DNA of 64,000 nucleotides from Sphagnum compactum (GCA_965153455.1 OZ234494.1:8680001-8744000); one strand, 5' to 3'; shown: positions 5,996-64,000, counted from the stretch's first letter. Program-made: numbers and translations. The notes: generated by a model from the letters alone, not told the origin.

Positions 5996-6782
5996 CTCTC
6001 CCCCACTAGAAGGAGAGGTCAATGTCCTCATTGACACTTAGAATTTCTTTCAACAATTACAATTGCTTTCTTTTGGATCCTTGGCCATCAAATGCCGACT
6101 CCTTGCGGCCGGACCTTGCCTCAAGCTAACTTAGGCGTCCCCAAGCTTCCAACACTCTCTTGGCAAGTCCAAGGGTGTCTCAATAGAAACCCTCCATCGC
6201 TTCGTCAAAAGACCTAACTAGCCTAATTGACGAAGCCCTCATTTGGGAGGCCATTCTTTCAACCTTCCCCTCATGAGGAACTCAAGCCAAGCCTAATCTT
6301 GACCTAAGCTACTTGACATGACTCCTTTCGCAATCTTGCGCCTTGATCACAACAATCAAGCCTTTCCTAAAGGTATGCTTATCAAGGTACGAGAAGCGAC
6401 GTTTAGGCTTTGCAAAAGCCTAAGTCCCAAGATACGCGATTATAGTACACGAACGGGGTCATGACTTCCCGCGTTGGCCGCCACTACCAACCAACCCCTT
6501 GGGATGCACTTTGGGCATGTGCACGTCCCCGCAAGCTCACCTTGCTTGCCTCCTCTTTTCGGACCAAGATTTCTCCTAGCCCCCAAGTAGGAGTCCGATT
6601 TTGATTTGGGCTTACGCAAGAAAGTTCCATTTGTCCATGCCACTTGACAACGCCCCCTTTTCTAACATATTATTATGTTTGTGATGCAATCTCTCGGAAG
6701 TCTTTAGCCTTTATTTCACTTACAACTTGATTTGGTACATTTGTGTAACTTTCCGCCCCCTAAAAGAAAGGTGATGTCCTCA

Positions 6783-11273: not shown

Positions 11274-11322
11274 CGGAACTCCCCAATAAGTGGATCGAGC
11301 TCACCGGAGCTCTGATACCAAG

Positions 11323-14321: not shown

Positions 14322-17300
14322 CTAACTAGTTGAACTTGAATTCTCAACACTCCCCCTCAAGCTCAAATCCACTTCTAGTACACCAAGCATTTTTCTAAAC
14401 TTCTTTAGCTTGTCTGTACCTAAAGCCTTTGTGAAAATGTCAGCAACTTGATCTTCGGTACTGACATGAATGAGGTCAATTTCTTTTGCTAGAACTTTTT
14501 CTCTAATAAAGTGGTAGTGCACCTCAATGTGCTTTGTCCTAGCATGATAGACCAGGTTGTTAGCAAGTAGTATGCTACTAATGTTATCACAATAGACGAT
14601 AACAGGAGCATCCACTAACTGTCCCAAATCTGAGAGTAGTTTTTGTAACCAAACTACTTCACATGCAGCAATTGCTGCACTTCTGTATTCTGCTTCCGTG
14701 CTTGATAATGCAACTGTTGGTTGTTTTTTACTACTCCAACTAACAACACCACTTCCAAAAGAAAACATGAAACCACTGGTTGATATTCTCTCTGAACCAT
14801 TGCCAACCCAATCAGCATCTGTGTATCCATGTACTTGTAACTGGCTCTTGGCTTCATAAAAAATTCCACATTACAAGGTATGTTTTATGTACCTCAGTAT
14901 GCGCCTCACTGCATCCAAATGTGGCTTTCGTGGTGTTTGCATGAATTGACTCACCACTCCAACTGCATAACTCAAATCTGGCCTTGTGATGGTCATGTAA
15001 ATCAAATTCCCCATTATGTGTCTGTACATAGTGGTATCCTCCACGAGGTCTCCTTCATCTGCACTCAACTTCACATTTTGCTCCAATGGAATTGAAATGG
15101 GTTTACAACCCGTCATCCCATATTCGGACAATTTGTTCAAGGCATATTGCCTTTGTAGTAACCATATCCCTTTCGGGGAATGGATTACCTCAATGCCGAG
15201 GAAATAACGCAACTCTCCTAAATCCTTCATCTCAAACTTTTGTTTCAAAAGCTTCTTCAAATCAGAGATGTCTGCATCACTATCTCCTGTGATAATCAAG
15301 TCATCAACATAGATGACTATGACTACAATCCCATGATCTGTCTTTTTCACATATAGTGAAAAATCTGCATTGGATGTTTGAAATCCACTTGTGACAAGAT
15401 ACTGACCTATCTTGTTTGACCAAGCTCTAGGTGCTTGCTTCAAGCCATACAAAGCTTTCTTCAACCTACAAACCAAATTAGGATGTGTTTGGTCCACATA
15501 ACCTGGTGGTTGTTCCATGTACACTTCTTCCTGTAAATCTCCATGAAGAAAAACGTTCTTTACATCCATTTGATGTAAAGACCATCCTTTTGCTGCTGCC
15601 ATAGCAATGATTGCTCTTACAGTTGTCATTTTGGCAACTGGACTATAGGTCTCCTCATAGTCTATGCCATACGTTTGGGCATAACCTTTGGCAACCAATC
15701 TTGTTTTGTATCTGCTCACAGATCCATCTGCATTGTGTTTGACTTTGTACACCCATTTGCACCCAATTGCTTTCTTGTCTTTTGGTAAAGCTACCAATTC
15801 CCAAGTAGCATTCGCATCCAAAGCCGCCATCTCTTCATCCATGGCATTGTCCCACTTAGGATTTCCAACCGCTTGTTCAAAACAAGTGGGTTCAACCTCT
15901 TGTATAACTCTCACCATGTATGCGTAATGATGAGCTACAAAGCCATCATATGTGAGTCTTTGTACAGGGTACTTGACTCGTGTGGATCTTCGTACTCCAA
16001 TGTTGTTGTCAGGTGTTTTCAAAGCTTTCTTGACCATCCGAGCTCCAGGAGTAGTAATTGAGGTGATTCTTGATTCTTCACCCTCACTCTTCTCTAACTC
16101 ACTTGATTCACCATCTACATGAAAATTTCTAGATGATGTTTGTGAACTACCATGTACAATGTTTGAAGATCTTAATCTTCCTTTCCATGGAGTGCTACTG
16201 GACCCACTAATTGAAGACTCTTGTGGTCCACTAATTAATTGTGATTCTTGTTTGACATTTGATGAAACATCACCATTTCTAGCTTCTTCATCTTCTGCTA
16301 CCTTCAATGGTGAGTACCAACTAGCCATCTCATCAAACACAACATCTCTACTCACTTGCAACTTCTGAGTGGAAGGGCTGAAACATCTATATCCCTTTTG
16401 TTCTGAGGAGTATCCAATGAAGATACATTTCTCAGCTTTTGGGTCTAGTTTTGATCTCTTCTCATTAGGAACATGCACGTATGCAATGCAACCAAACACT
16501 CTGAGGTGTGAAACATCGGGTTTCTTGCCTGTGAATTTTTCTTCAGGTGTCATGCCATGAACTGCCGCTGTGGGTGTTCGATTCATGATGTAGACTACGG
16601 TTGCTACCGCTTCAGCCCAAAAGTAATTTGGCAAATTCTTCTCATTCAACATGGCATGTGCTATTTCTGCAATGTGCCTGTTTTTCCTTTCAACAACTCC
16701 ATTTTGCTGTGGGGAATAACTACATGAGTACTTCCTTTGAATTCCATGCTCCTTCAAGTACTCACTGAATTCATTTGAAAAATACTCTCCCCCTCCATCG
16801 GACCTTAGGCACTTGATGCTCACACCTTTCTCCTTCTCCACCATTGCTTTGAAATTCAAAAAATGTTGAAACACTTCACCTTTGTGTTTCATGAAGTAGA
16901 CCCACACCTTCCTTGTGTGGTCATCAATGAAACTCACGTAGTATTTGCATCCTCCAATGGATTCTGTCTTCGTGGTCCACACATCTGAGTGGATCATTTC
17001 CAAAGTTTTGGAACTTACATGAGTTGTTTGAGTTGGGAAAGGATGCCTAGTTTGCTTCCCCAATTGGCATGCTTCACAAACCTCTGACATCACCTCTTCT
17101 GCTCCAAATTTGGGAAGACCTCCAACAAGTTTTTGTTTCTCCATGAGTTTAAGACGTTGGAGATTAACATGGCCAACTCGCTTGTGCCAAATTTCAATGT
17201 CTCCAGCTCCTTTTCCATGTGTGAATAACATGGAATTCACCTCAGGCATGTTCACATCCAAGGTGAACATTCGTCCATTCCTTTCCCCTTTTGCAATCAA

Positions 17301-18617
17301 TTTGCCTTGGTTCTTCATGTCTTTCACAAAACATCCATTTGGGTTGAATGTCACCTGTAAACCTTGTTCCACCATCTGGCCTACGGAAACCAAATTTTTT
17401 GTTATGGTTGGAACATGAAGTACATCTTTTAGGTACTTTGTTTGCCCATCTTCCATGGACAATGGCACCTTGCCAATATGTGTGATGGGATGTGTAGTGT
17501 CATCACCAGTTTCCACAAACCCTGGTGTCTTCAAATCCTTTGCGTCTCTAAACCATTCTCCATGGCTAGTCATGTGGTTTGAAGCTCCAGAGTCCACATA
17601 CCAGACATTGTTGTCTGATACACCTCCTATCATTGAATTTGCCATGTGCTGCATCACAAACAGTTGTTCATCACCTTGATTGCTAGTTGATGCATAATTC
17701 CCTTGTTGTAGCTTTCCATTTCGTGCATCATGCTCCCTTTGATAACAGTTCTTTGCCATGTGCCCAGGTTTCCCGCAGTAGTAGCAATTTGAATCGCTAT
17801 TTGGTTGTTGACCTCGATGATTTCCACCACGACCTCCACGACTTCCTCGACTTCCTTTTCCTCCAAAGTTTCCTCGTCCACCTCCATGAGCTTGACCTTC
17901 ATGTTGTTGATGTCCACCATGCGAGCTTCCGGATCGACCTCGAAATGAGGTTTTACCACCTCTGCCTCTACCTCTATTGGTATTTGAGTAAAAAACACTT
18001 TCTTGTGATCCTCCATTGGATGAAGTACCAACAATTCTCATCGCTTCACTTATAAGTAATGTTATTAAGTTTTGGAAGTTGGGAAATGTTTCTCGAACTG
18101 CAATTGAGGTACGGAACTGATTATAGTCTTTTCCAAGTCCATTTAAGGTCACGGCCACAAAATCTTCATCATCTACAGGGGCTCCTATAGATGCAAGAAC
18201 ATCTGCAAGGTTTTTCACCTTTGTAGTTTAGTCATTGATGTTCATCTTGTTTTTCTGTAGATTATGCAACTCTTGCTTGAGCTGCATTTTGCGGGCTTGT
18301 GTATTGGTGCTGTACATTTTCACCAATGTATCCCAAGCTTGCTTGGGTGATTTTGCATCTTGAATATGCACAATCATGGAATCAGACACACTCACAGAAA
18401 GCCAATACAAGACTTTCCTTGCTTTTTCATGCCAAGTTTTATTGGCTTGAATTTGTTGTTGTGTGGGGTATTCTAGGAGAGGAGGTTCTTTCTCATCACC
18501 AGTTATGAATTCCCAGTAGCCTTTCCCCATCAAGAAATTCATAATCCTAAATTTCCACACTTGGAAATTGTTCTTGTCTAGTTTCTCAATTGCAATTTGA
18601 GAAAGACCGTCCGCCAT
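14322..18617 (-). pseudogene. Copia polyprotein with two in-frame TAA stops (18228-18230, 14871-14873)
   Basis: ORFs 18228-18617, 14871-18218 and 14322-14768 share one frame; CYYCGKPGHMAKNC, WYVDSGAS, LRSDGGGEY, YVDDL, YTDADW, YCDN, ADIFTKAL; the ORF runs into the 3' LTR. Confidence 0.95.
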
Positions 18618-18683
18618 CTCTCAAGGCACTACTCAATGTCTTCTTGGGGTTTCAAAATGATTTTAATTCCTTCCTTGGGTTTC

Positions 18684-18748
18684 TAGGGTTAGGGTTAGGG
18701 TTTTCCTTCCTTAGGTTTCTAGGATTAGGGTTAGGGTTAGGGTTAGGG
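18684..18748 (+). repeat. Telomere-like (TTAGGG)n tracts in the Copia leader
   Basis: TAGGG-TTAGGG-TTAGGG at 18684-18700 and (TTAGGG)4 at 18725-18748. Confidence 0.9.
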
Positions 18749-20906
18749 CTGAACAAGATAGACCTTGCATATGTATGTATGTCTTGAGTATTGTACGAAA
18801 TTCTATACTATACATAGGTTTTACGTATAGGTACGTATCTCATATAATATTTCGTATGGTATTAAGTACATGATTACATACCACACTTTTGTACGAAGGT
18901 CTTGATAATGTATTTGCGCTTCCCAATCTTCAAACTCCTTCCTTCAAGTTCTCCCAAGTTGTATTTGCTCCACTTCAAAACTTTGCTTTGGTGTCTTCTC
19001 AAAACAAACTTCTGTCACAGCAACTTTGCAAAGCTACTCCACACACATATGACCTTGGATCGATCTAAAATTTTGGTGAAACATAGAACACTATGTCTAC
19101 TACCTTCTCTCAAAATTTCAGCTCATTTAACTTCATAAATTGAGAGATCTTGCTACTTCCTTGAAGTCACCTCAAACTGGGACCTGAACACAAAATGACT
19201 TACAACTCACTCTCAGCAACTCCAAAATCCTTGAGATTTTGGAAGACACATAAAATATATGTCTTCTATATTTGCTCAAAATTTCAGCTCTATTGATGAT
19301 GACTACAAAGAGATATCACTTTCAAAAGAAACTGACTTCAAAACTGAGATTGAAACTTCAGATGCTTGGATCTCTCTCAATACAAATCCAAATGACATGA
19401 AATTTCTCTCACACATATATTCCTATATGATCTATAAGATCTCAAAGCTGCAGATCCAAAAAGGCTCAAACAAAGGAGATATGACCAAAAAACCAGATCT
19501 AGCACAGAGTTTTCAAAAGCTCATAACTCTCACAAAACATATCCTTTTCTTTTGAAAATTTGAGAATAGAAGAGTCCTATAGTCTTCTACAACCTCTCTA
19601 AGTTTCATTTCAAGATCTTTTCACAGTAGCTCTAGATCTAGCTTTAAAGATCTGACTTCCACAACTTTGATATGTTGATCTCCTCTCACCTCTTTTCTTT
19701 TCTTTTCTTTCTCTTCACATTCTTTCCTTTCCCCGTTTCTCTTTTGCACTTGACAAACTCCTATGATATTACTAGAGACTTTCAAGTTCTAGTTTTAGAG
19801 ACTTTCTAGCTCTAGATCTCTTTCAACTTTCTCACCAAACAACCTAAGCTCTGATACCATGTTAACAAATAGGAGATCTACTCAAGTGCAAACATAAATC
19901 TTTATTGAAAGGAAACTACAACATAATGCTCACAACACAAAACACAACATCAAGAACTCTCCAAGGTTCTTGTCACAAGAAATACACAAACTTGTGTAAT
20001 GAAGAAAAGAGAGGCAAACCATCAACACCAAGGTATTTAACTAAAAAACCAAACCATAAATAACGAAACTAAAATAAGTAACGAAAGTAATTCAACCTTG
20101 TGAAAGTAACCTAGTTACTTTCCTACTTTAGTAACTAATGAAACCTAACTAGTTGAACTTGAATTCTCAACAGTTGGAAGCCCCATCACAAATTGGCACA
20201 CACGGTCCAACTCATGCATGTGCCGGATCTCAAGCATGAGCTCGGAATAAGCCCTCACATATTGCCTCAAATTTACATTTGTGGCATTCACAAGGTCACG
20301 GAGTTTGCACCGCGAGATGTAGTCGGAATTCCTTGGAACAAATTCCGACTCAAGGCATTCCTTAAAGAACTCCCAAGTATACCCATGGTTCTTCCCTTCC
20401 TCTTGTCTCACCGTCCGCCACCATGTGGCGGCATAGCCTTTCAAGTAGGATTGGGTAAGCTCCACGGCGGAATGCCGTCCAACCTTGGCGGCATGTATAT
20501 AGTCATCCATCTCCGCAAGCCAAGCATCCACAATCTCCCGGTCGCGGGCACCATCGAAGTTCCCGGGCTTGGCCGGTTGAAACCTTTCACCTTTGGAGGT
20601 CCCCGTTTTGAGGGCTGCCACCAACTCACCAAAGTCGGGCCTATTCATCTTGAGGAGGACTTCAAGTTGCTCCGTGGTGAATAGAACCGAGCTTCGTTGT
20701 TCCTCCTCACTCTCGGGTTCCACTTCGGGCTCATTTTGGTCCTCCCGGGAATTTGGTTCCTTCTCACCAATTGATTCCGGCGGGGCTACTAGGTCTTCGA
20801 CATGTTCCTCGGACCTAGGTTCCGGAGCTTGCTTCCGGTTCTTCTTGGGTGCCATCCCAAACTCCCAAGAAGTAAGTCGAGCTTCACCTTGAGCTCTGAT
20901 ACCACG

Positions 20907-21725
20907 TGACGCGCTCCTAAGTCCCTTGTTGAACCCACTTGAGGGTCCAACTATATAGAGTTGCGAAAAGTTGGGACTTGGGGGCCGCTCCCGACTTCCA
21001 ACACTAAAGAGGGGTAGAGGGGCGTGCTAGAAGTCCCGGGATTAGACTAGGAAGAGGACAAGCGTTTCACCTACTCAAATCTGCATAAAAACCAACCCCA
21101 AGTTGGTTAGAACCCATTCTGCACCTTTTTGGTGTTGGGACAAGCCACGGGCTAACTCAGATTCACTTGACTCACCATGGCCCGGACTCGGGGGAAGCCA
21201 CCACCTTCCCCCATATAGTATATTCTGCGTCTCACCGCGGAAGCTACACCCGAATGACTCTTTTTCCCGGGACTCCCAAGTTGGAGTCCTGAAACTGTCC
21301 CGGGTTGGAGTCCCGAAACTTTGGGAGCTCGTATCTCCCAACTTCAACCTTCGATTGGAGTGAAATCTAAACCAAAGTTGTAGCCCTCTTTGAGAGCTTT
21401 CCAAGGCCATGTCGCACTCCTTCAGGCGACATTGGGAAAGGGTCGATTCCCGACTTTTAGTGGTTGGGAGTCAAACTACCAGTTTGACTCCCGGCCCTTC
21501 TTTTGCCCATAACTTGGGCTGCAGATGTCCAAATTGCCAATGCGAGGGCATTTTAGACATCTACACTTCAAGACATTTTCATTGATATAAAGAACACATC
21601 AAGGCGAGGTGTTTTGACCCCCTGTAATTGCTTCTGAGTTTTCGGGAGTCTCGGAGGACTCCAACTTCCCACTTTTGGGAGTGTGGGCTTCACCCTCACA
21701 CTTAGCCCAAAGTGGGGTTGCGACA
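20907..21725 (-). repeat. 5' LTR of element A
   Basis: PBS adjacent; TSD follows. Confidence 0.97.
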
Positions 21726-21950
21726 TAGTTGGTGTTGAAAATTCGAGAGTGGGGGGAAATAACAAAGAAGGTAATAAGGCCTTTGTGCAAAACAACGAGT
21801 GAAAATCTTGAATGCCACCGGCACATCTTCCAACCTAGGAAGGGCATTTATGTGTTACGCATCATCATCCAAAACATCTTGGAAAAAAGAAGATGTGAAA
21901 GAAAGGGACCCCAAAGGAACACCCAAAACCCTAATTGTGAGGTGACTTTC
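21726..21950 (-). pseudogene. Degenerate non-LTR RT, 5' part
   Basis: Minus-strand IRVLGVPLG (RT domain-7-like xLGxPxG motif), then ALPRLEDVPVAFKIFTRCF. Confidence 0.55.
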
Positions 21951-22201
21951 CGTCCCTCTACTCCCGGTTCTACAAGGTGATTATGCATGGAAGCACAAAT
22001 GCTACTAATGAAGGAAGAATACAAATGTAATTTTGGAAATTAGATTGCGTTTGTAGTTGAAATTAAGTAACCTACCTCCTATGCATTATTTATGATTAAA
22101 ACTGATAGATATATTTTTCCAAGCTCACACACTACACGTTCTAGGACTTGTGCCAAATTGTCATTCTCCAAACCAATGTTTAAGGACTTAACACCATGTC
22201 C

Positions 22202-22565
22202 AACCTTGCTGCAGACCACTAGTCACTTAAAATGTTGTTTCTCACACATAGACGGTTCAAATCTAGCTTGCCATAGCTCTCTGGAAAGCTAACAACAAGG
22301 CGCACCAACCTACCAAATCTCAAGATCTGCAGCTACAACAGTAAGGAGTTATACCACCAAACCCGAGAGGGTTTTACAAAGGTGATGATCAAACCTTGCT
22401 GCAGACCACTAGTCACTTAAAATGTTGTTTCTCACACATAGACGGTTCAAATCTAGCTTGCCATAGCTCTCTGGAAAGCTAACAACAAGGCGCACCAACC
22501 TACCAAATCTCAAGATCTGCAGCTACAACAGTAAGGAGTTATACCACCAAACCCGAGAGGGTTTT
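22202..22565. repeat. Direct duplication of 174 bp (period 190)
   Basis: 22202-22375 equals 22392-22565 by eye. Confidence 0.9.
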
Positions 22566-22784
22566 TGAGATTTCTCTAGAGTTCTAACCTTCAACACTAT
22601 CACTAGATTTTCATTCTAATTTTTCTTCCTTCTTCCCTCCACCAAGACTAAACATTATTTCCCTCTTCAAGAAGCTTGTGAAATAAGTGTTCAAGATTGC
22701 ATGAAAATTATCCTCGAGGCAAAAAGAGAGGCTCCCCATGATCCAAGTCCGCCTTTTAAAGAGAAGGAGAAGGGAGGTGAAGGT

Positions 22785-22997
22785 GGATCCAAAGCTTGGT
22801 GGCCAATGGAAGGATCCAAAGCTCGGTGGCCATTGGAAGGTTCCAAGCTTGGTGGCCATTGGAAGGATCCAAAGCTTGGTGGCCATTGGAAGGATCCAAA
22901 GCTTGGTGGCCATTGGAAGGTTCCAAGCTTGGTGACCATTAGAAGGATCCAAAGCTTGGTGGCCATTAGAATGTTCCAAGATTGGTGGCCAATGGAA
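22785..22997. repeat. Minisatellite, 8 copies of 26-27 bp
   Basis: Unit GGATCCAAAGCTTGGTGGCCATTGGAA with a GGTTCCAAG variant. Confidence 0.92.
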
Positions 22998-23244
22998 TGT
23001 GAAGGATAAACACCTTTTCACCTCTTCCATTTTCCCCCAACAACTTTACTTACACCCCCAATTTTTCCCTTCGACCTCACGATTTTACTTTACCATGGTC
23101 CTAAACCGTTACTCCCGCCTTTCTTTCCTCTTCTTCGAACTATAAATTACGATTGCGCACCTCAACGTGACAAGTCTTTCCCACCTCCATTGTCAAATTG
23201 ATTTCGATTGAAGATCTAACCTTTTTCTTCCTTTGCTTGAAATT

Positions 23245-23667
23245 ATGGCGTCGCGCATGGTTTCATCTTACGGGCCGCAAGCCGCACAAGCGAACGAAGA
23301 ACCACCTCCGGAGTCGTCCCTAGATCTTACCCTAACCCAGCATCCTCGCGATGAAGAACCCGAACTTCGAGAAATGCGTGCTCGTCTTGAAGTCGAACCT
23401 CCTCGAGCCTGGTACTATCGCATTTCTCCGAACTCTCGCACCCTGGTGATCTTGCTGCAAGTTGACCCCGCTTCTGGTGACGAACCCGAGACTGTTTGTG
23501 AAGGTTGTTACGAAACTGAAGATACTTCTATCTTCGCATGGTCTTCAGTTCCCGGTGTTGGTCACTATTGTTGGTTGCGCGGTCCGATTCATCGACTGCC
23601 TCCCAATAGCAAGGCGGACTACCTAGTTCGCACCATTCGGCGCATCTTAGATTTCCTGCAGTTGTGA
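23245..23667 (+). CDS. Small intronless orphan protein (140 aa), homologous to 62874-63317
   Basis: ATG at 23245; TATAAA near 23141; AATAAA near 23738; C-terminal 82 aa align without gaps to the second copy. Confidence 0.75.
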   Translation: MASRMVSSYGPQAAQANEEPPPESSLDLTLTQHPRDEEPELREMRARLEVEPPRAWYYRISPNSRTLVILLQVDPASGDEPETVCEGCYETEDTSIFAWSSVPGVGHYCWLRGPIHRLPPNSKADYLVRTIRRILDFLQL

Positions 23668-26600
23668 ACTATCACTAAGGCATAACTCAGGATTCTACAT
23701 GTACTTGTAGCTCCTTGCTGAGCTTATCCCTATCATAAATAAATGTTTCAATTATCATCAGACTCCTATTGCTATTAGCATACTATCTGTTTAATTGTTG
23801 AGTTGCCTTGAATTAACCTTATGTTCAACGGCTTGAAGATTATTCTACCTCTATTAAATCTTTCATCAACACCCCTTTAGCTGCTTTTAGAATTTTTAAC
23901 ATCCTTGCTACTTTCTAAATACCATAACAAGATTAATGTTGTGTTGAACACCGTAAATTTTGGTGTCTATTGCTACCCCCAACCCTCTAGAGATTTCTCA
24001 CCCCTAATTATGCAACAAGGTTTCTAAAACTATGGTTATTAGCCTTTGCTGAAGAAAAGAACTAATCCAACTCCTTAATCACCAACAACGCATTTCAGAA
24101 AAGAAAATAACCCCCTTCGCACCATGCACACTCAACATCCCTATGAAGTCGCTAAAAGCCCTTAATAACCTTACCCCATTCAAATAACCCTGATGTAACT
24201 CTTAAAAACTGAGACTACCGCACATGGTTGTGTCGGTATGGCTCACATTAATGCCCCAAACATGGGTACATAAACCTGATGGAGGTGAGGACCCTGAAGG
24301 CAAGTCTAAAGGAAACCAAACGACACAATTGCGGGGTTGAACCACAAAACCTACCAAGTTTAATTGGGAAGAAAAATGATGAGAAAATTTCACCTATTGC
24401 TTTTTGATCTTAAGGTAGCTTGGAAGGAATACATGAATAATCATTTAAAAATATTGTAAGTTGATAATATGGGAAATGATTATTTTGTTAATGCCACATT
24501 ATTATAAATGATGAATCTTTTAAATTGTTGCTAGATATGAAAAAATGTTTATTTTTATTGGTGTCCACATTATTGTATGGTTTCCCTATTTTTGCTATTA
24601 GGGCACCTTCCTTAATCATGCCATATATGTCTTTCAAATGCACTTTTCGAAAGGAAAAAATAAAAATAAAAATCAATATCCGTTTTCCACATTTTTACAC
24701 GTCGGTCATTATATTTGCTTCACTTTTGAAAAATTAAACTCAAAATTCTTAAACATCTCTTCAATACATATAGGTACTTTGCCATATTACTAAGCCACTT
24801 ATATTAAAATTCTTGGAACTTAATCTAATTTCAATTAGATTAAGTTCCATGAATTTCAATATTAAATTATATAATATATAAAAGAGTCAAACAAATAGAT
24901 AGATAAGTAAGCAATTAAATACATACCTCTACACATATATTTACATATGTTTTGTTTTGTTATGCTAAAATCTCCCAAACCATGGCGCTTCATGCCACAT
25001 TCTTGGTATCTTCAAAAAGCTCTCAATGAATAAGGGCACATTGACTTGGTTTGAAGCTATGGTGTAAAAGTTATTGATTATTGAGTTATTTTTTTAATGA
25101 AAACTAGATAAAATCGAAATTGAAAACTATATTGAAGTTTGGGGGCGTTGCTGATGTTATTGGAAAGCCCTTGGAAAGTCAGACTTAATAGAGTTTATTC
25201 TACAATTTTCAGAGCTAAGGTGTGGAAAATATTGATATGTGAGTGGATTTTGCTGTTGGAAATTCAAACAAATTGAAAAAGTTGGGTTTGGAAGGAAAAA
25301 TCAGTTAAGCCCTCAACGTGCTCACACTTGGGGCAACGACACAGGCTACAGTAATATATGTACACTAGTGGGTACCCGTGACCTTTGGACACTGTGAAGA
25401 CCCCAAAAGTGAGTTGGGGGGGGGGGGGGAGCAAAAAAAGACAAAATTATCAAATGTATTTGGTTGGTTTTGAGTGTGTAGTCAAAGATATAGAAGCATG
25501 ATTATAGTTGTTTACTTCATATCCGGCTTTAATAGCCAGTTTTGGCACAATCTTCTTGAGGAAGGTCGCCACATTTTTCTATGGAAGATCCCCACTGTGG
25601 TTACAAACAAAAAATCTTAGAAAAATAAAATGAAAAACAACACTGCTAGGGACGACCTGGGGTCGGTCCCTCCTGGCAACTACCTCCTTACTATGAGATA
25701 AATTGCCACATGATTGTCTCCTCCATTCCATGGATGGATGACGGGACCCCCACCCCCAATAGAAAAAAGAAAAAATTTCTCCCTTTCCCCATCTCCCCAA
25801 AACCCAAAAAAGGAAAAAATTGGCTGCACTGATTGCATACCGAGCCTTCCTCAGTTATGGGCCAATACCCCTTCATAACAGGATGGATACCTATTGTGCT
25901 ATAAATAGGGCAGAATGGGCAATTCCCTGAAACAGTGGAGTTTTGCAATTTAAGAAAGGCCCGCGCCCTCCCCCCCCTCTTTGCCTTGGATGGATGGAGG
26001 GATGGATGGATGACGGGATGGACGACAGGACGGATGGATGGAAAGGACGACCGCCAACCACAACAGGACAAAACCTAAAATATTATATAAGTAGACTAGT
26101 GGGTACCCGTGACCTTCGGGCACTGTGAAGTCCCCCGGTTTCTTTAAACTTGGTTCATGTTTTAGTTTTTTTAGAAACTTTCATCTTTTTCTTTTTTTTA
26201 ATGTGTTTTCTGTTTTTATTATTATTTTGTATAATAAAAATAAAGTGTTTCTTTTTCACTTTTATATTTTTGTTTATTTGGATGCAAGTTTGAAGTTTGG
26301 AGAAAGAAGATACACCTCATTCTTTTTCAAGTAGGGCTTTTCTTCATTATTATAAGTTTTATTTCTTTAATTTTTTACTCTTTACTTGGTTTTTTCATTT
26401 TTGTAAAAAAATTTTCTTTTAAAATTATTTTACTGTATTTCCCTTTCCTTGTTTCATTTGTTTCCATTCCTTTTTTAAAGTTTTTGCGTTTTTACTTTTT
26501 TTTTAAAAATGTTTGTTTATGGCTTGTCTTCCAAGTATTCTCTGACAGCACTGTGGTATGCATTGTGCGTGTGTGCGTGCAAGATTGGGTGTGAATCAAA

Positions 26601-27136
26601 ACCCATCATTCCATTTGTCTTTCCCAGAAAGATGAAGCTTTTGCCACTGCTGTCAAATACATGTCTAAAGAGAATAAAGATTCTCAAACTAATGAATATT
26701 TTTCAAGCATTTTGAGAAATGTTTTTCAGGAATTTTTTAAAATGCCCAATTTTAAACCTAATTGTAAGCCTCAGTGCTAAATTTTTGTTAATCTTAAGTC
26801 AAAACAATAAAAAGATTCTAACCCAAGCCAAAATGGCAATTTTTAAAAATCCTAAGTCAAAATAATAAAAAGATTCTAATCCTTAGGCCTAAATAGAAAT
26901 TTTGTTAACAAAAAACTCGAATTGAAATTTTCTTTAAATTTAAAAAAAAAAGTGATTATGAAATGACCCACCTTTGTGATGAAGTTGTTTGGAAACACTG
27001 GAAAATCCTCACACTGAAATCCTGACAAAAGCCTCAGAACTTCAAACCTTTCATAAAGTACACGCAAAGCATGTTGAGAAAGAATTTTCAAGTTCTCTAA
27101 TGGCATCTTCCAGGAATTCCAAGCAAGAATTGCCTT

Positions 27137-27299
27137 CTAGAAACAAAATAGCAAGCCTATTGTGCACATCCGGAATGTCCATACCGGCAGACTCGGATCA
27201 TTCGTATTGGGAACCGTTTGTCTCACTTGTTCCCTTGGCGACTCGTCCACGTTCCCACCCTGTTCCAATGCTTTCAGTCCCTCCAGTCCCTCCCCCGGA
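27137..27299 (-). pseudogene. Captured oligopeptide transporter (OPT family) exon fragment, copy 1
   Basis: [27 protein letters not shown] matches the OPT N-terminal motif SPxEEVRxTVPxTDDPxLPxxTFRM; preceded by a TTTTGTGCAG acceptor. Confidence 0.8.
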
Positions 27300-28081
27300 C
27301 TGCACAAAACTAAAACCCACATCAATCTTCAACATTTATAAGGTGTCGGTTATTATTGAGCAAAATGAGAATTCCCAAAATGCCAAAAAATTTCAAGCAT
27401 CCAGTGCATAATATATTTTGGGCAGAAACGATAAAAATCAGCATTTATAACTTTCCAAAGCAAGTTAAAATTTCCAAAATTGCCTGAAATTTTTTCAAGC
27501 ATCTTAGAAAAAAAATCTCATGAATATTTCCGAGCATAGGATTTGTTGATTTCCCAAATTCTTCAGCAAAAATGAAAAAAAATCAACCTATATAAGCTAC
27601 CCAAAATATATTGGGCAGAATAAAGATTCTCAAACTAATGAATATTTTTCAAGCATTTTGAGAAATGTTTTTCAGGAATTTTTTAAAATGCCCAATTTTA
27701 AACCTACTTGTAAGCCTTAGTGCTAAATTTTTGTTAATCTTAAGTCAAAACAATAAAAAGATTCTAACCCAAGCCAAAATGGCAATTTTTAAAAATCCTA
27801 AGTCAAAATAATAAAAAGATTCTAATCCTTAGGCCTAAATAGAAATTTTGTTAACAAAAAACTCGAATTGAAATTTTCTTTAAATTAAAAAAAAAAGTGA
27901 TTATGAAATGACCCACCTTTGTGATGAAGTTGTTTGGAAACACTGGAAAATCCTCACACTGAAATCCTGACAAAAGCCTCAGAACTTCAAACCTTTCATA
28001 AAGTACACGCAAAGCATGTTGAGAAAGAATTTTCAAGTTCTCTAATGGCATCTTCCAGGAATTCCAAGCAAGAATTGCCTT

Positions 28082-28192
28082 CTAGAAACAAAATAGCAAG
28101 CCTATTGTGCACATCCGGAATGTCCATACCGGCAGACTGGGATCATCCGTATTGGGAACCGTTCGTCTCACTTGTTCCACTGGCGACTCGTC
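28082..28192 (-). pseudogene. Captured OPT exon fragment, copy 2
   Basis: Manual translation [35 protein letters not shown]. Confidence 0.8.
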
Positions 28193-28495: not shown

Positions 28496-30610
28496 CCATG
28501 CAAAGCTGAGCTGCATGCTGCTGCCATCCGTCCTCCTCCTCTTCCATCATCTTCTTCTTCCGGGATGAAGAACTTAGATGGATGGAAAACGGGACGGATG
28601 GATGGAAAGGACGACCAGACACCACCGCAAGAGGACAAAACCAAGGATATTATATATATGAGACTAGTGGGTACCTGTGACCTTCGGACACTGTGACATA
28701 TGACATCACTTTCTCTTCTATTAACAATATTACGAACTCTATACATAACAAAACAACATAATTCAAAATGTTTATTTTTGAAAAAAGGTGTAATTTGCAA
28801 GTCTAAGTTCAAATAATTTGTTGAAAATTTCAACAAACCTTGTCATACTTGCAACATAAAAAAATTAAAAAATAAACTCATGAACATGTGTGAAAACAAA
28901 ATCCTTAAAAATAAATATATTGATTATTCGATAGTTACTTGCTGAACCCAATCACAGCCTATGATATATCATCCCTCCCCCAAATTACACATACCCACTA
29001 AAGCGCCCCCAACATACAACCCAAGGAGGACGACCGGACGGACAGTGACCTTCGGGCACTGTGAAGTCCCCTAGTTTCTTTAAACTTGGTTCATGTTTTA
29101 GTTTTTTCTAGAAATTTTAAAATTTTTTTTTTTTTTAATGTGTTTTTTGTTTTTATTATTATTTTGTATAATAAAAATAAAGTGTTTCCCTTTCACTTTT
29201 ATATTTTTGTTTATTTGGATGCAAGTTTGAAGTTTGGAGAAAGAAGACACACCTCATTTTTTTTCAAGCAGGGTTTTTCTTCATTATTATAAGTTTTATT
29301 TTTTCTTATTTTTTACTCTTGATTTGGTTTTTTCATTTTTTTTTATTTTTTTCTTTTAAAATTATTTTACTGTATTTCCCTTTCCTTGTTTCATTTGTTT
29401 CCATTCCTTTTTTATAGTTTTTGCGTTTTTACTTTTTTTTGTTTATGTTTGTTTCATGCTTTAATTTTTTCTATTCTTATTTTGTCTATCTTCATTATTT
29501 TTAAAAATTATACATTTATTTATTTTGTTTCTATTTTCTTTTTCAAAAAGATTCTAGTTTTTCTAATATGTTTTGTAATGAAAATAATTTTTAAAAACTT
29601 TTGTATTTTTGTTTGATTAGATACAGGTCTGAAGTTTGGAAAAAGAAGATAAACCTTTTTTTTTTTTCAAGTATGGTTTTTTTCTCTTTCTTTTGCTGTC
29701 TATTTTGTTTTTTAATTTTTGTCATCTATTTTTAAATTTTCTTTTAAGATTATTTTACTATATTTCCCTTTTTTGTTTCATGTTTAAATATATTTATTTT
29801 ATATGTTTTCATTTTTTTTCTATTAAGTGTTTTAAAAAAGTTTCTAATTGTTAAGGTGTTTTTCTGTTTTTTTTTCTAGCTTTTTCCCTTAAAAAAAATA
29901 TTTGTTCTGTTTTTTTCTTTTTTGTTACAACTTTGTTTCATTTTATTTATTTGTTAATAACTTGTTTTTTTCTTTTTTAATTTGAAATTTCTTGTGTTGT
30001 TTTAAAAAGATTTCTTCTCTTGTTTCTCATTTTTTTTCAACAATTTTTAGTTTTTTAAAATTAGTTTGTAGCTTTTGGCAAATTGCAAGACTACACGAGT
30101 TTTTCATAAACTACAAGATTGGATCACATAAACATTTGGATAAACTACTGCTGCCGCCATTCGTCGTTGTCGTCCTCCTCTTCCATCATCTTCTTCTTCC
30201 GGGATGAGGAACTTGGATGACGGGACGGATGGATGGAAAGGACGACCACCACTGGACAGACTAAGGATATTATATAAGTAGATACATACTCTTTCTATTT
30301 ACAAGCGACCTTTTGCAACACTACTTTTACTTTACAGTTTATCTTACATTCTTTTGACAGGACTTTTCATTGGTATCATTGAATTCCTAAGAGCAATACT
30401 CAAAAACCCAATTCCCACCTAACCCCCAAAAATACTAGAACCCCCTGGGAATTTTGTAGTGTACCTAGTACGAAGGCACGTTATTGCGTGTGATTTGCCT
30501 ACATGAAGGCCAAACATTTCAAAAAATGGAATGCTTGCTTCTGTTGGCATTTTGTTCTTTTGTTGGCCTCATAAGTTTACGGATAGTTCATGAATTTAGT
30601 TCATGAACCC

Positions 30611-33056
30611 CAGTCCTCATAAGTTTACGGATATCCATAAACTAAATAAACTAAGCTAGTTTATGGACGCCACCCAAGCTTAGTTTATGGACGCAAGGAA
30701 TTAGTACTCCAGGCTCTGCAGGATGGGGCGCTGCTTGGTCTAGAAGATGCCCTCCAGCAACAAGTGCATCAGGCAGGTGCGGAACTCATCCATCTCCCAC
30801 TTGAGAATGGAGAAGTCGGACTCGACAGCAGTCGTGTTGGCGAAGGCGGTGGCCAATCCGCCGAGGAAGGCGCGCAGGCGCTCGACCCACGCTTGTTGTG
30901 GCACCGCGTCCCAGGCGTCGTTGAAAGTCGTCTGCACGTCGTGCTTGTCCAGGGCGACGTGCAGCACCGCGTCCTCGTTATACATCTTGAGCAGGTAGCG
31001 GTGACCCTCCTCGACTTGGTCGATGGACTCCTCGGACCAGAACTTGGAGTGATGGTCGCGGTACGGGTCGAGCACTTGCTCAATGAAGTCGCCGTGGCGC
31101 AGCTTGACGATCTGGTTAGGCATCATCGGCGGGGCATCTTGCTCGAGCGGCTCATTATTTTCTTCGCGTTCAGCGCGGATGTTGCCGAGCCCGGTGACGA
31201 GGAACATGGCGTACTGGGTGAGCTGGCTCATGACCTCCTTCTAGGCTGGCGTGTCCAGGCGCTCGTAGCACGACTTGGGGAACGAGCCCTGGTCCTTGAC
31301 GTAGAGGACGAGTTTGGCGCGCTCGATGCGCCACTGCTCGAACGTCTCGTCGCCGTCGTCGTCGTCGTCGACGTCGCCGGCGTGGAAGATGCCGAACATC
31401 GCGACCAGAGTGCCGATGAGCGTCTGGATGAGCGATTCTGGATGCGCGATTAGCAACGAGCGGTTCTGCGACATGACAAACGTCTTGTTGATCTCCTCGA
31501 TGGCGGGCGCGATGGCGCAAGCGATAACCCACCATTGATCCGACGGCAGCTTGTCGCTGGCATTGGCCGTCACGTGCTAAACGATGGTGCGGCGGTACTG
31601 CTTGAAGAAGTTGAGCAGCACGCCCAGACTGACCCAACGGTTGGTCTTCTTGGGGCACTTCACGTTCATGCGCGTGATCAGGTTCGCCTGCGAACGTAGA
31701 TAGACCGACAGCGACCACGCCTGCTTGGACCACTCGCCGTCATACAGCATGTCGGCGCCGTCCTTGACGACGACGTCCATCTGGTGCAGTGGGCACCAGA
31801 TGCGCAGGACGTGATGCTCTGCCTCGCAGGCCATGCGCGTCACCAGGCTGTTGAGTCGCCCGACCATGTTCGGCTCGCCGTCGGTGCCCACGTTGATCAG
31901 CTTGCGGCGCCGGAGGCCGTACAGCGCGTCCAGGAACTTCACCAGCATGTTGAACGTGTTGAGCCCGGTGTGGCGGTCAAACTGGGGGATGGCAACGAGG
32001 TGAAGATTTAGCAGGACGTCGCGGTAGCACACGCGCAGGCGCAGGTCGAAGAAGTGCTGGCCGCGGTGGGTACTGCCGTCGTCGGCGAGTGACAGCGCCC
32101 AGATCGACTCGTTGACGCCGAGGTCGGCGATGCGCTGAAGGGCGAAGCGACGCCAGCGCGAACGTACTGGCCGACGATAGTGTTGTTGATGCCGCCTAGC
32201 TTGGACAGGCTGCAGCGCTGCTTGGTATGCTGCATCGCGGCCGCCACTTGGCGGAACGACATTCCTGTCGAGACATGGTCCATGGCGAGCTCGTATCACA
32301 TCGTGCCCTTGATGGTGACGACATATTCGTCCTCGTCGACGTTTGCCACGTCCTTGACGAACAGCTTGAGCGCTAGAGTCTTCTGCTTGGCCTTGGCGGC
32401 GGCCTTCTTGGCGATTGCGACGGCCGCGTCGCCATCGTCGTCGTCGTCGTCAAAGTCGACGAGCACCTCGTCGGGCCGGAAGAACAGGTCGAAGATGATG
32501 ACATCGACGATGGGCGTCGACACGTGGAACGTGAGTGAGTCGGAGTCCAAGTTAACGTACCGGTGCAACATGTTGGCGCGGTTCGCCTTGCCATCGAAGT
32601 GCATGTGCTTCTCTTCGTTGGACAGCGCGCTGTACTCGGCCCATAGATCGGTGTGCTGCGACTCGTGGTGACTACGGTAGTTCTGCGGCGTGAACGACGT
32701 CCAGTACTTGGTGTCGTTGCGCGAGCTGCACTGGCGCTTTTCGCCAGCGTGCTCGTCACCAGCCTTGACCTTAGTGCGGCCGAAGAAGGCACATAAGTTA
32801 TAGCGCACCGACGTGACGCGCTTGTTGGCCTCCTCGGCGATCTTCAGTCCGAATTGGAGGCAATGCGCCGGCTGAAACAACGTGGCAGGCTTCTTCGACA
32901 TTTCGAGCCACCGACGATTGTGAACGGCACCGATGCGCAACCCGTGCTGCGCAAAACCGCAGGAAAACAGCCCTTCTTAGTTTATGGACGGCGCCGGAGC
33001 TTAGTTTATGGATATCCGTAAGGGTTTTTGCCAAATCTGTAAACTTATGAGGCCAG
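30611..33056 (-). mobile_element. GC-rich hAT-superfamily DNA transposon
   Basis: TIRs CAGTCCTCATAAGTTTACGGAT and ATCTGTAAACTTATGAGGCCAG; 8-bp TSD ATGAACCC/CTGAACCC (7/8); subterminal TAGTTTATGGA repeats at both ends. Confidence 0.85.
30701..32901 (-). pseudogene. hAT-like DDE transposase pseudogene, intronless
   Basis: ORF pieces give LSLADDGST, VGTDG, WCPLH (CxxH), NRW and TTAVESDFS; four premature stops and a frameshift near 32150. Confidence 0.85.
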
Positions 33057-33562
33057 CTGAACCCCCTTACACCAAGCACCATATCTTCCCCATTCCTTTA
33101 CCAGATTGAGCAATTTTTGTTGCCTTGGAAGGGGGTTGAGGGCTACAAATGTTCTTTGAGCTTCAGAAGAGAAGATTTGACCTGCTTTGACTTCTTAAGA
33201 GTTCGCTCACTGGCCTATTTACACTATCACAGAAAAAACAATTAAAAAGAAAAGAAAAGAAATCCAAGTAGTCCTTACGCAGGATAAAGCCCTTGACCCG
33301 CAAGCTTTATCAGAATGGGGCCCACATAAAAACATCAATTCGTCCTCTTATTGGAGGAGAGGGTGAAATAATGGACAACCCAAATTTGCAAATTACACAA
33401 AGTATGTCTTCTTCAGTTTTCAGAAGTTCGCAGTTTTGAGTAGTTTTCAGGAGCTTCGTAGTTCGTTGTTGTTTGCGTGATTCTGGAAAAATGCACAGTT
33501 GTTGTTGTAGTTGTTTTTCAATCGCTTGAATTTTTTCTGTCATCGTCGAAGAGACGGACGAA

Positions 33563-60973: not shown

Positions 60974-62402
60974 TTAAAAGGACTTACCACCCTTTTTGGA
61001 CTTGAAATATTGTCTTGTTGGTATTTTGTTGCCACCGTTAGATGCTCCCAAGATTTCATTTACAACATTTTGATTTCGACTTGGTGGCCTAATCCCCCAA
61101 GCACACCACTTTGGAGTGAAAGGAACTCCACAATCTGGAAGCAAACATTGGAGGTTAAAGGCAATATGCTCAACAATACAACATGGGTGGTATGAGTGAC
61201 CACATGGGGCTATCAAATGATTATGGCATTTGTACTTAAACTTGCAAACTGGACACACATTCAAAATGTAATTAGTGTCTCCAACCATCTTTAGGGTATC
61301 TAGGATTGGTAAAAGGGTACAAGGACAATCCCCTTCCTTTTTCCATCTTTTGTAGTTGGCACTGAATATGATGGATCCTTGCTTCTACTACTTTGAGGTG
61401 TTTCAATGTTATCCCATACACATCCATGTGTATGGCTAAATACTCCTTCAAATTGCTACAATTCTTTTTAGCCAATGTGAATCTCTTGTTGGCTCATGTA
61501 AAATCAATTTAATCATTTGCCTTGTTTGCTTGAACGTTATGAACCTTCTGGTCTGCATTTTCAATTTTAACATTTAACTTTACAATTTGATCCTTAATGA
61601 GATTCAATTCATCATCCTTGTATTCGACGTCAGTGAAATTTACCTTATTCTTCAAAAAAAGTGTAAGCTTGTTTTTCAACCTAGACAATTCTTCTTCAAC
61701 ACCTACAATATCAATGTTAGTTTTTTCCAACTTAACCTCAGTTTCTACAAGCAACTTTTCCCTATCTTGAAGGTTCATGTGAGCTCTATGAATATCTCCA
61801 TGCACATTTTCAAACTCTTTATCAAGACTATTTAATTCCTCTCTCAAAGTTGCACACATTTTTGATTTGGACACCAAAACAGACCTCACATCCTCAATCT
61901 CTGATGTTGACTAGCTAGGAGCACTAGTTGCCCTAGGGTGTGATGTCTTCCGTCTTGACATTTTTGCCTCACACATATCTACTTTGCACAAATTTGTTTG
62001 ACCTTGAGCTGTAGAGCTAGGCTCATCAAATAATGGGGAAGAAAGGTTTAGCACATGGGATCAAGGGGGTCATGGAGGTAGAAGAGTTGATTCAAGCATA
62101 GAGAAATCATTTGTTGATGTGAGGGCTTGCTTTTTTTACTATTGTATCTTTTCACCTCTTGAATCTGTGATTGGAACTAATGCAATTGGGCACCAAATTT
62201 TGTCCAGTTCAACTCTATGCCCTTCACTTTGCACACCAAAGCTCTTGCAAACTGTAGTGATTAGGGTGTTTAATCTTTGACATAACCTTCCAATAAAAAA
62301 TTTCAATCTTTTCACAATGTCTGCTTCAAACTTTTGGTCATATTGCCAACCATTTGTGAGCCATGGATTATAATACCAAAAATTGTTAAGCTTTAGTTCC
62401 AT
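60974..62402 (-). pseudogene. Degenerate coiled-coil + C-terminal RING finger gene
   Basis: Consecutive broken ORFs; heptad-rich segment 61509-61889; CPVC..PCGHSYHPCC..CLLPDC RING-H2-like pattern in 60974-61288. Confidence 0.65.
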
Positions 62403-62873
62403 AGTTTTCCTTAGTATTAATGATTTGAATCCTGATAAACCTCCAAGTAATAATTATTAGGATTTGGATTAACCTTTGGATATTTCAGCGTAGAAGACTC
62501 TTTTATTTAAATTGATGCAAGGCTTAGTTAGTTTTAGGACCTAGTAAACCTATTTAAGTGCATTATCCTTTTATGTTGTAGAGAAGGGAAAGGGGATGTA
62601 GAATTAGATGTGATTTATTGATATATTGGGAATACAAGCCCATAACTAACAATAGCATTTCGCCATGACAATATTAAGTTAGCCTGTAGAATAATCTTCA
62701 GGCACGAATGATGTACTGGAAAGATTTCTAGGATGCAGTCCTAATACATCTTTATTTAGTCTTCACTTCTATCAGACGCTTAGATAGAATCAAAATCAAA
62801 CTTAAGTATTAACATTTCCACTTGAGTGGCCTCAGGTGAATTACAACTTAGTAAACAACTTTAAGAAGATAGA

Positions 62874-63317
62874 TCACAATTGCAAAAACTCTAGAATGCG
62901 ACGTATGGTGCGAGCTAGGTATTCGGCTCGATGCTGCATGGAAAGGGGGTTAATTGGGCCTCGTAGCCAACGGTAATGGCCATCACCAGGAACCCAAGTT
63001 CGACAATGAAGACAAACATCGTCGTCTTCACATTGACACTCTTTAAACCTTTCTGGCGCGGTTCCTCGAGCAGGAACGAATTCTAAATAAATTGCTAAAG
63101 CATGTTGGTTAGGAGACAATCGATGATCGCATGCCGAACGATCGACTCGAGTGCGCACCACTCTTCTGGATGGTTCTTCTTTGCGTGACCGTTGAGAGAC
63201 ATTCACCGCAAGCGCTACTGCGTCAAGCGGTGTTTCGTCAAGCGGTGCTTCTTTAAGCTCTTCCTTGTCTACTGGTGCAACTGGAGGATTCGAAGGCGTA
63301 GCGACATCATCTGCCAT
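62874..63317 (-). CDS. Small intronless orphan protein (147 aa), homologous to 23245-23667
   Basis: ATG at 63317; intact ORF; ends RTIRRILEFLQL*. Confidence 0.75.
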   Translation of the reverse strand: MADDVATPSNPPVAPVDKEELKEAPLDETPLDAVALAVNVSQRSRKEEPSRRVVRTRVDRSACDHRLSPNQHALAIYLEFVPARGTAPERFKECQCEDDDVCLHCRTWVPGDGHYRWLRGPINPLSMQHRAEYLARTIRRILEFLQL

Positions 63318-64000
63318 GACTAAATTATCACCTGCATCAACAAAAATAGAGGGTAGCAGAAACAATGTGGTACTTGCATTCAGAAGGGGTCAAGGCCTTT
63401 TTATTTAACAAATTAGGGTAGGCGTAAAGTGTGGGAATGACGGCGGAACCTCATGAAAATTCAAACATCCTAGATCTAATGGATTCATCGAACCCTAATT
63501 TCGACGGTGGATCTAGGAGTATGTGAGGGTTTTTGTGATGCAAATTTCAATTCCAATTTACTATGTACTACATAGTTCATTAATGCATGGAAGAAAAAAT
63601 AAGTAGGGAATATCAAAAGAGTAAATGGTACGTGGGGATGTTACTTCAACCATTGAATTGATTTAGTCAAGTAAGGATTCAAGGATGTTTACTTGTTACT
63701 ATCGATAAATTGTCTTAGTAGTTAGTTATTTGAAATAATTAGGATGAAGAAGTAGGATGTGAAGGTCAACGGACGGAAAGGATAAGGATCAAGCTCAAGA
63801 ACCTCATCAAGCTATCTAAGATAAGGGGAAGGATGAGTCCTCCAATCCCATTAGTCATGAGGATTGTTATCCTATTTGATTGGAGGATGGAATATTTTTT
63901 GTGTCTCATTGGGTCCAATAATTCTCAACCTAAAATCAATTAGAGGGTAAATCATTCTCAATTCTCATTAACTCTTAAAGGATGAGGAGGCCATTGATTA

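Follow-up and report, generated by a model that had tools for sequence, protein, structure and literature searches.

Two related frames within LTR-type units

The subject of this analysis is a stretch of 64,000 nucleotides of Sphagnum compactum DNA (GCA_965153455.1 OZ234494.1:8680001-8744000), referred to here as the window, in which two intact open reading frames (ORFs) of one small-protein family, copy 1 and copy 2, are found (Table 1). Each of them lies within a unit of 2.3-2.6 kb that has the ends of a long terminal repeat (LTR), TGTGAGG...GGCTCACA. An earlier description made from the bare sequence (the sequence-only reading) had regarded the frames as two paralogs in transposon territory; they are instead part of the transposons themselves. 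Very probably, they represent an accessory protein gene borne by the LTRs of a moss LTR-retrotransposon lineage, which is represented in the window by a solo LTR and by a sister LTR that is truncated. The earlier proposal of an accessory gene of a large mobile element stands as far as the mobile carrier is concerned, though what carries the gene here is no large element but a solo LTR.

The kinship of the two ORFs is evident at the protein level, with 43% identity across 129 amino acids (BLASTP, E 5e-27). The C-terminal 82 amino acids align without gaps and share 42 identities, exactly the number reported before; in 2000 shuffles the mean was 5.0 identities and the highest number 13. Within the final 12 codons, the previously counted seven synonymous changes and single D/E change were likewise recovered, the remaining four codons being identical. 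Over all 82 shared codons, 27 differ synonymously, 15 are identical and 40 differ in the encoded amino acid; dN between copy 1 and copy 2 is 0.40, and dS is saturated. Copy 2 is counted from a conserved ATG; its frame would comprise 163 amino acids if begun at an upstream TTG.

Table 1. Positions of the two ORFs, of the units that carry them and of the sequence signals in these units, counted from the first base of the window
Feature	Position	Strand	Remarks
Left target-site duplication CTAAT, copy-1 unit	21931..21935		4/5 bases equal to TTAAT at 24248-24252
Solo LTR-type unit, 2312 bp, TGTGAGG...ATGGCTCACA ends, carries copy 1	21936..24247	+	
190-bp tandem repeat, 1.9 copies, in upstream (U3-like) part of copy-1 unit	22202..22565	+	
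27-bp tandem repeat, 8 copies, with CCAATGG/CCATTGG (CCAAT-box-like) core in each	22785..22997	+	
TATAAAT box, 98 bp 5' of copy 1 ATG	23141..23147	+	kept in 26/27 aligned units
Copy 1 ORF, 140 aa, intact	23245..23667	+	disordered acidic/Pro-rich N-terminus with LDLTLTQ, then ~88-aa C-terminal domain
AATAAA polyadenylation-type signal, 71 bp 3' of copy 1 stop	23738..23743	+	kept in 27/27 aligned units
Right target-site duplication TTAAT, copy-1 unit	24248..24252		
3' 1646 bp of copy-2-type LTR unit, 5' part past window end	62355..64000	-	ATGGCTCACA terminus at 62364-62355
AATAAA, ~118 bp 3' of copy 2 stop	62751..62756	-	kept in 6/6 aligned copy-2-type units
Copy 2 ORF, 147 aa counted from conserved ATG, intact	62874..63317	-	
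TATA-like TAAATAAAA, ~85 bp 5' of copy 2 ATG	63399..63407	-	kept in 5/6 aligned copy-2-type units; putative role

Ends of the form TG...CA together with 5-bp target-site duplications are the mark of LTR-retrotransposon insertions made by an integrase, and a single unit with an intact duplication is the usual appearance of a solo LTR. The copy-1 unit was compared with 80 metagenome loci encoding close relatives of copy 1, which are the best 80 of 566 stretches confirmed among 605 pattern matches; the locus flanks reach at most 10 kb and come from metagenome contigs, which break at repeats. In loci that reach the 5' end of the unit, homology to the window begins at 21932-21938. Nearly all of those extending to the 3' end lose it at 24245-24254; in locus L073 it stops early, at 24102. 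Twenty-eight copy-1-type sister units are seen whole. They correspond to 26 distinct insertions, since two pairs have common flanks, and their 5-bp duplications are perfect in 20/28, match in four of five bases in 5/28 and are missing in 3/28. The copy-1 unit is bounded by the terminal inverted repeat TGTGAG...CTCACA; 24/28 sister units start with TGTGAG and 25/28 end with CTCACA, each of the remaining seven termini being one base off. The closest sister units are about 93% identical to the unit in the window.

Copy 1 is placed 1309 bp from the 5' end and 580 bp from the 3' end of its unit. Upstream of it, the 190-bp repeat is matched two or more times by sister loci (BLAST), and the array of 27-bp repeats, which extends ~150-360 bp 5' of the TATA box, is the most length-variable part of the unit, with a column identity of 0.16-0.54. 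For this CCAAT-like array an enhancer role may be envisaged. Among 27 aligned copy-1-type units, which are 70-93% alike, the TATAAAT box and the AATAAA signal are kept as listed in Table 1 and the ATG is kept in 27/27, while the bases around TATAAAT vary. The corresponding copy-2-type signals are likewise kept as listed in Table 1, with the ATG present in 6/6 units.

The same 10-mer, ATGGCTCACA, terminates the units of copy 1 and copy 2. Five copy-2-type sister units in the loci align from position 64000 and stop at 62352-62355. Four copy-2-type units are seen whole; they measure 2337-2640 bp, start with TGTGAGG or TGTGAAG, and have target duplications that are perfect in 1/4, match in four of five bases in 2/4 and are missing in 1/4. 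From these lengths it follows that the copy-2 unit in the window extends ~0.7-1 kb past the window end. The ORF occupies the same relative place in both unit types. Outside the ORF and the ends, the DNA of the two types is nearly unalike, the downstream alignment scoring 3.5 and the upstream alignment 1.1 standard deviations above shuffles, and BLAST of the window against itself returned no DNA match between them. Locus L060 (20.4 kb) contains three ORF-bearing LTR units, one of the copy-1 type and two of the copy-2 type in opposite orientations; members of the two subfamilies hence occur side by side and accumulate in common regions rich in repeats.

Coding selection and range of the family

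Of the full-length copy-1-type sister copies (n=76), 20 are intact and 56 have one to four internal stops, which arose chiefly by CAA>TAA, CGA>TGA, TGG>TAG and CAG>TAG changes. Length is nearly constant, being 420 instead of 423 nt in only 2/76. Altogether, 2785 differences from the majority sequence were counted, of which 1901 are C>T or G>A; by codon position they are distributed as 726 (first), 555 (second) and 1504 (third). The pairwise dN/dS has a median of 0.24 (2700 pairs) and of 0.20 among intact copies. With selection assessed by variant frequency class, not by branch, the ratio of nonsynonymous to synonymous counts is 1.21 for variants present in at least five copies and 1.98 for singletons, the neutral expectation being 2.2-2.9. 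Calculated on CpG-free codons, the ratio of nonsynonymous to synonymous polymorphism (pN/pS) is 0.175. Purifying selection, which had been suspected from the last codons of the two ORFs, is thereby supported. Frequent disabling mutations combined with a dN/dS near 1 had been named in advance as speaking against a maintained gene; such mutations are indeed frequent, yet dN/dS is far below 1. The low ratio in spite of mostly broken copies fits a gene that is kept in the replicating lineage and decays after insertion.

The ORF is also set apart by its base composition. Its ratio of observed to expected CpG (o/e) has a median of 1.21 in the 27 aligned units, compared with 0.33 upstream and 0.46 downstream. 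For copy 1 itself the value is 1.18, and for copy 2 it is 1.19, against 0.30 and 0.47 in the flanks of the latter. Accordingly, both subfamilies have a CpG-poor LTR in which the ORF stands out as a CpG island. Copy 1 has CpGs in every codon phase (13, 9 and 13), and this richness across phases exceeds what amino-acid constraint alone explains.

The latter circumstance could be taken to mean that no protein is made and that the frame is open by chance or through a constraint on the DNA or RNA of the LTR, such as the CpG island itself or an RNA structure of the R region. In line with this, nucleotide conservation in the ORF (0.83-0.87) is little above the 0.65-0.82 measured elsewhere in the unit, the repeat zone excepted. 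Such an explanation is extremely improbable, however, given that pN/pS is 0.27 in the ORF frame as opposed to 0.75-1.02 in four control frames, the value being 0.40 for the antisense frame, whose third positions coincide with those of the ORF. Likeness of the proteins persists though synonymous sites are saturated, the start codon is kept in every one of the 27 units, and the domain is recognisable in Physcomitrium and Ceratodon.

Relatives are numerous. At the level of 90%-identity protein clusters, 1674 clusters are related to copy 1 (up to 97% identity) and 1155 to copy 2 (up to 85% identity), and a profile search through 1.84 billion representatives yielded 394 clusters (50% identity) at E <= 0.001. 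Moss and peat metagenomes and metatranscriptomes are rich in close relatives. Among 30 clusters that were looked up, the named ones belong to Physcomitrium patens (A9U498, A9U643, A9U5N5) and Ceratodon purpureus, the others being unnamed metagenome proteins; no named member beyond mosses was seen among these 30, most clusters being without a name. One Ceratodon cluster has 138 members across many chromosomes. In two C. purpureus members, P0299 and P0331 (KAG0576639.1), two C-terminal domains occur in tandem in one protein, which hints at the domain acting as a pair. A search for fused or longer forms of 287-2000 amino acids scored 0/308 candidates. Three long P. patens models from the profile search (P0367, P0379, P0412) were considered as fused forms and set aside, as they look like gene-model chimeras or tandem copies; their matches to DUF4100 are sub-threshold (22.9 and 19.1 bits at a cut-off of 27.9). 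The idea of an endogenous viral protein, raised in the sequence-only reading, found no support: 79 pattern matches in viral contigs left 0 confirmed relatives, and no fold match was obtained in BFVD.

With the range of the family in view, it may be asked if the ORFs are host genes that came to lie in repeats by accident, or a recently captured host gene that is carried as a useless passenger. The CpG content would suit an unmethylated host gene (o/e 1.2 in surroundings of 0.3-0.5), as would the ORF's own TATA box and AATAAA, and the distant clusters P0349 and P0386, both of them small and uniform, may represent single-copy host genes. This origin is nevertheless unlikely. Two LTR subfamilies have the ORF at an equivalent position even though hardly any likeness is left between their flanks, the family is multi-copy in three moss genera, selection is visible among the repeat copies themselves, and no longer or fused host form turned up in the size range given above.

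Architecture of the protein and the LTR as a probable gene-bearing unit

The N-terminal half of the protein is Pro-rich, acidic and predicted to be disordered. It contains a motif of the form hydrophobic-x-hydrophobic-x-hydrophobic-[ST]-Q, which is present in 105/112 copy-1-type, 95/116 copy-2-type and 13/35 distant members. The motif reads LDLTL in copy 1 and LAVNV in copy 2, with variants of the LEVNV type in the copy-2 subfamily; several distant members have an Arg-rich stretch after it. The C-terminal part is a conserved domain of 85-89 amino acids with the pattern W..L....ALVI.L.V...P...FEG.YE...D......PG.GH.RWL.GP..L....R..Y...TI.RIL.FL. A model of this domain based on 39 sequences has five strands and a C-terminal helix (pLDDT 70.9, pTM 0.57), while a full-length fold (pLDDT 54.5) was set aside.

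No known family was met in the searches, in agreement with the earlier statement that no domain could be recognised. In Pfam, no family was found at E <= 0.01 for copy 1 or copy 2, nor at E <= 1 for five distant members, and a sequence profile search of the PDB gave nothing at E <= 10. With the C-domain model, the confidence of which is moderate, the best result of Foldseek against the PDB had an E of 0.33, that of VIA-align against 48,161 chains a Z of 3.8, and that in BFVD an E of 0.1; the ESM Atlas held no usable match for copy 2 or the relative P0121. The weak fold rows that did appear (PUR-alpha, PC4-like, SRP14, COMM) are at noise level and were not taken as evidence.

On the whole, one gene family inside LTRs is probably the best explanation of these findings; a solo LTR would house copy 1, and copy 2 would reside in a sister LTR that has diverged and is cut by the window end. 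For the more specific notion that the ORF is bracketed by a promoter and a poly(A) signal belonging to the LTR itself, the chances are about even. If so, the conserved TATA box, ATG and AATAAA around the ORF would make the LTR a self-contained transcription unit, and the whole ORF would consequently fall into the R region, provided that TATA box and AATAAA are the promoter and terminator of the LTR. From this position the ORF would be the first cistron of the element RNA, and any LTR, including a solo one, could yield an mRNA of ~0.6 kb. Selection would act on the replicating element lineage, and hence the protein would be expected to help the element propagate.

How it might do so can be sketched only tentatively. 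The likeliest role among those considered, though itself far from certain, would be that of a small nuclear adaptor that uses a short motif and a new domain for bending host transcription or silencing. The motif in the disordered acidic N-terminus would hook a host factor, for instance a co-repressor of the TOPLESS type, and the C-terminal domain, consisting of a beta-sheet plus helix with the invariant GH.RW, would bind a second partner; by this means the adaptor would modulate host transcription or silencing in favour of the element. The complete scheme, according to which the LTR is an entire RNA polymerase II (Pol II) gene whose R region encodes an EAR-like adaptor of new fold that has been retained, for its benefit to the element, ever since Sphagnum and other mosses diverged, is conceivable and at the same time doubtful. 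If it were true, each LTR could serve as an expression unit, the solo LTRs in their thousands included, the genomic RNA of the element would bear the gene at both ends, and the strategy of the element would extend to the CpG-island state of the ORF.

The same components would permit the opposite effect, namely a copy-number brake, with solo and full LTRs expressing a protein that inhibits transposition or recruits repression to the family. Precedents are p22 of Ty1 and other dominant-negative element products, and LxLxL motifs of the EAR type are associated with repression; where the strict motif is present (107/112 copy-1-type and 14/35 distant members), it would point in this direction. The dosage of a brake would scale with LTR number, promoter-like signals being found in each, but it need not track copy number because most copies are broken. 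As a helper is the simpler fit to selection on a replicating lineage, a brake is regarded as quite unlikely.

Several observations weigh against the LTR-borne helper gene as outlined. In 4/4 metatranscriptome runs, contigs from moss RNA libraries span the entire unit, the U3-like part too, and pass the AATAAA into differing flanks beyond 21936 and 24247; DNA carry-over or read-through would give the same picture. In two of the runs the summed depth is 2-8x greater over the ORF, and unique flanks are without cover, but the extra depth is no proof of transcription since the ORF is the most conserved part, on which more copies pile up. The strict EAR-type LxLxL occurs in only 1/116 copy-2-type proteins, so that the EAR-like motif pointed out in the sequence-only reading holds for copy 1 and its relatives and does not extend to the copy-2 subfamily. 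No fold or family match from the Pfam, PDB and fold searches backs any function, and in the moderately confident domain model the most conserved loop (GH.RW) has a pLDDT below 50. Besides the 56 broken copy-1-type copies, 5/5 copy-2-type sister copies are dead, and dead copies form the majority. Finally, no partner was detected in the available flanks for any of 28 copy-1-type or five copy-2-type units, nor was any internal sequence common to the unit flanks, apart from re-sampled loci. As no paired full-length element was found, the status as an LTR, the orientation and the autonomous partner are all deduced from the structure of the ends. Lack of paired units is, for its part, weak evidence in view of the limited flanks and of contig breakage at repeats.

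The absence of partners would be accounted for if the 2.3-2.6 kb unit were itself mobile, that is, a one-repeat, gene-carrying element moved in trans by the integrase of another retrotransposon, and not what recombination has left of an element with two LTRs. That every unit seen is single would agree with this, as would the perfect duplications in 20/28 copy-1-type and 1/4 copy-2-type units and the size of the family, whose best members are so close to the unit in the window. Still, a transcript running from the unit's own TATA box to its own AATAAA would be devoid of U3 and U5, and no route is known by which a lone LTR is copied. Unequal recombination between long LTRs, on the other hand, leaves solo LTRs with intact duplications, and metagenome assemblies with flanks of this length favour solo copies. 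Furthermore, in two P. patens gene models the domain is joined, in the same orientation, to a gag-like/DUF4100 region, the DUF4100 match being sub-threshold; these junctions give a hint to the orientation of the ORF. A one-repeat element is therefore deemed very unlikely.

Three candidates for linked or internal sequence of the element were discarded. The neighbouring gypsy LTR at 20907-21725 has matches in 30 loci, but these are scattered and in both orientations, and it is considered unrelated. The gypsy and copia elements of the window have LTR ends unlike those of the units (TGTCGC...GCGTCA and TGTTGA...TTAACA, respectively), and neither is taken for the partner. Sequence resembling reverse transcriptase that abuts the unit in loci L007, L052 and L073 is best read as the result of insertions into old gypsy copies; L007 and L073 have one flank in common.

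For plant LTR retrotransposons, only a small number of accessory proteins is on record, and little is understood about them; the LTRs are viewed as control regions that do not code. The additional open reading frames (aORFs) of such elements include ORF1 of Ogre and the antisense ORFs of Grande, RIRE2 and Retand. Like the moss ORF, they are lineage-specific extra protein genes of unassigned role that are conserved within an LTR-retrotransposon lineage. They are situated internally, either upstream of gag or in the interval that separates pol from the 3' LTR, whereas the moss ORF lies wholly within the LTR, bracketed by TATA box and AATAAA. Retroviruses provide accessory genes in the LTR, namely sag of mouse mammary tumour virus (MMTV) in U3 and nef of human and simian immunodeficiency viruses overlapping U3. 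Coding within the terminal repeat means in these cases, as in the moss unit, that the gene is present twice per provirus and retained in solo LTRs, and their accessory role is directed at the host, as is proposed for the moss protein. Differences exist in that sag and nef belong to U3, their RNAs being spliced or started at internal promoters, while the moss ORF would be located in R; with viral proteins, the moss domain has no structural likeness in the fold searches described above.

Anti-silencing proteins are encoded in Arabidopsis by VANDAL (Mutator) DNA transposons under the name of VANC. Like VANC and accessory proteins of transposable elements in general (PMC13547354), the moss protein would be small, fast-evolving, element-encoded and thought to act on host pathways. 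The analogy is the one favoured in the sequence-only reading, where an anti-silencing or host-modulating factor was put forward, a role that the moss protein may have. VANC proteins stem from another class of element than the moss LTR, and the moss ORFs have no Pfam match at the threshold stated above. Repressors with an EAR motif (LxLxL) recruit TOPLESS co-repressors. Copy 1 and its relatives share with them the LxLxL, here within a disordered acidic N-terminus; in the moss family, the conserved motif is longer and ends in [ST]Q, and the copy-2 subfamily has variants of the LEVNV type. A module comparable in its placement is the 5S rRNA-like gene with promoter in the LTRs of Cassandra, a terminal-repeat retrotransposon in miniature (10.1101/2023.07.14.548913). 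A gene-like module with its own promoter would be embedded in the LTR in both instances, the Cassandra module specifying an RNA of RNA polymerase III and the moss module being a protein-coding gene of the Pol II type.

A full-text literature search returned neither an account of this family nor one of a protein-coding gene located in the LTR of a moss or other plant. In the main text of a study on P. patens transposable elements, supplements aside, the terms 'ORF' and 'open reading frame' are absent, and transcripts of solo LTRs were discarded (PMC7466625). A protein gene in an LTR that is under coding selection and has its own signals across three distant moss genera would amount to a new element layout, and the LTR-borne ORF would be a concrete candidate for an element-encoded factor acting on the host. 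As regards annotation, this single LTR-borne ORF accounts for hundreds to thousands of 'hypothetical proteins' of mosses and peat metagenomes. As Physcomitrium is easily engineered, the function of the protein is directly testable.

Surroundings of the two units

The window is nuclear DNA of a plant, and the moss relatives of its two ORFs fit a peat-moss origin. Nested Ty3/gypsy elements with chromodomain and copia elements occupy 1-21.7 kb of the window. The Ty3/gypsy chromovirus at 4960-12361 (minus strand) has LTRs at 4960-5998 and 11323-12361 that are 99.8% identical, and an uninterrupted gag-pol frame of 1505 amino acids at 6783-11300; nested in older relatives of the same family, it looks recently active. 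The 12-mer TGGTATCAGAGC, which we take to be a primer site for initiator-Met-tRNA, follows 3' of its 5' LTR and is found again after the copia LTR of the window. The copia element at 14037-20172 (minus strand) has LTRs of 313 bp that are 100% identical, and one in-frame stop at 14871-14873 divides its polyprotein frame into parts of 1118 and 182 aa; the element was inserted very recently, its target being a gag region of gypsy type. Two LTRs of 819 bp at 644-1462 and 20907-21725 share 96.7% identity and seem to belong to an outer gypsy element that encloses the entire nested cluster. Only 210 bp separate the second of these from the start of the copy-1 solo LTR.

Between the two ORF-bearing units, exons of a gene of the GH116 (non-lysosomal glucosylceramidase) type are found at 38676-42701 (minus strand), comprising the DUF608 catalytic region and the GH116 N-terminal domain. 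A frame at 35433-35999 (plus strand) weakly matches the C-terminal domain of LBP/BPI/CETP (25.6 bits at a cut-off of 23, E 9.8e-06) and is probably an exon of a gene for a lipid-binding protein. The region at 30650-34030 is GC-rich (0.51-0.53) and has long overlapping frames of up to 290 amino acids on both strands, with a Pfam match in 0/6 frames scanned. Local repeats occur at 26109-26518 and 29045-29454 (92% identity) as well as at 26671-27247 and 27617-28192 (98.6%), and at 59.9-60.5 kb there is a degenerate tandem array with ~75% identity from unit to unit.

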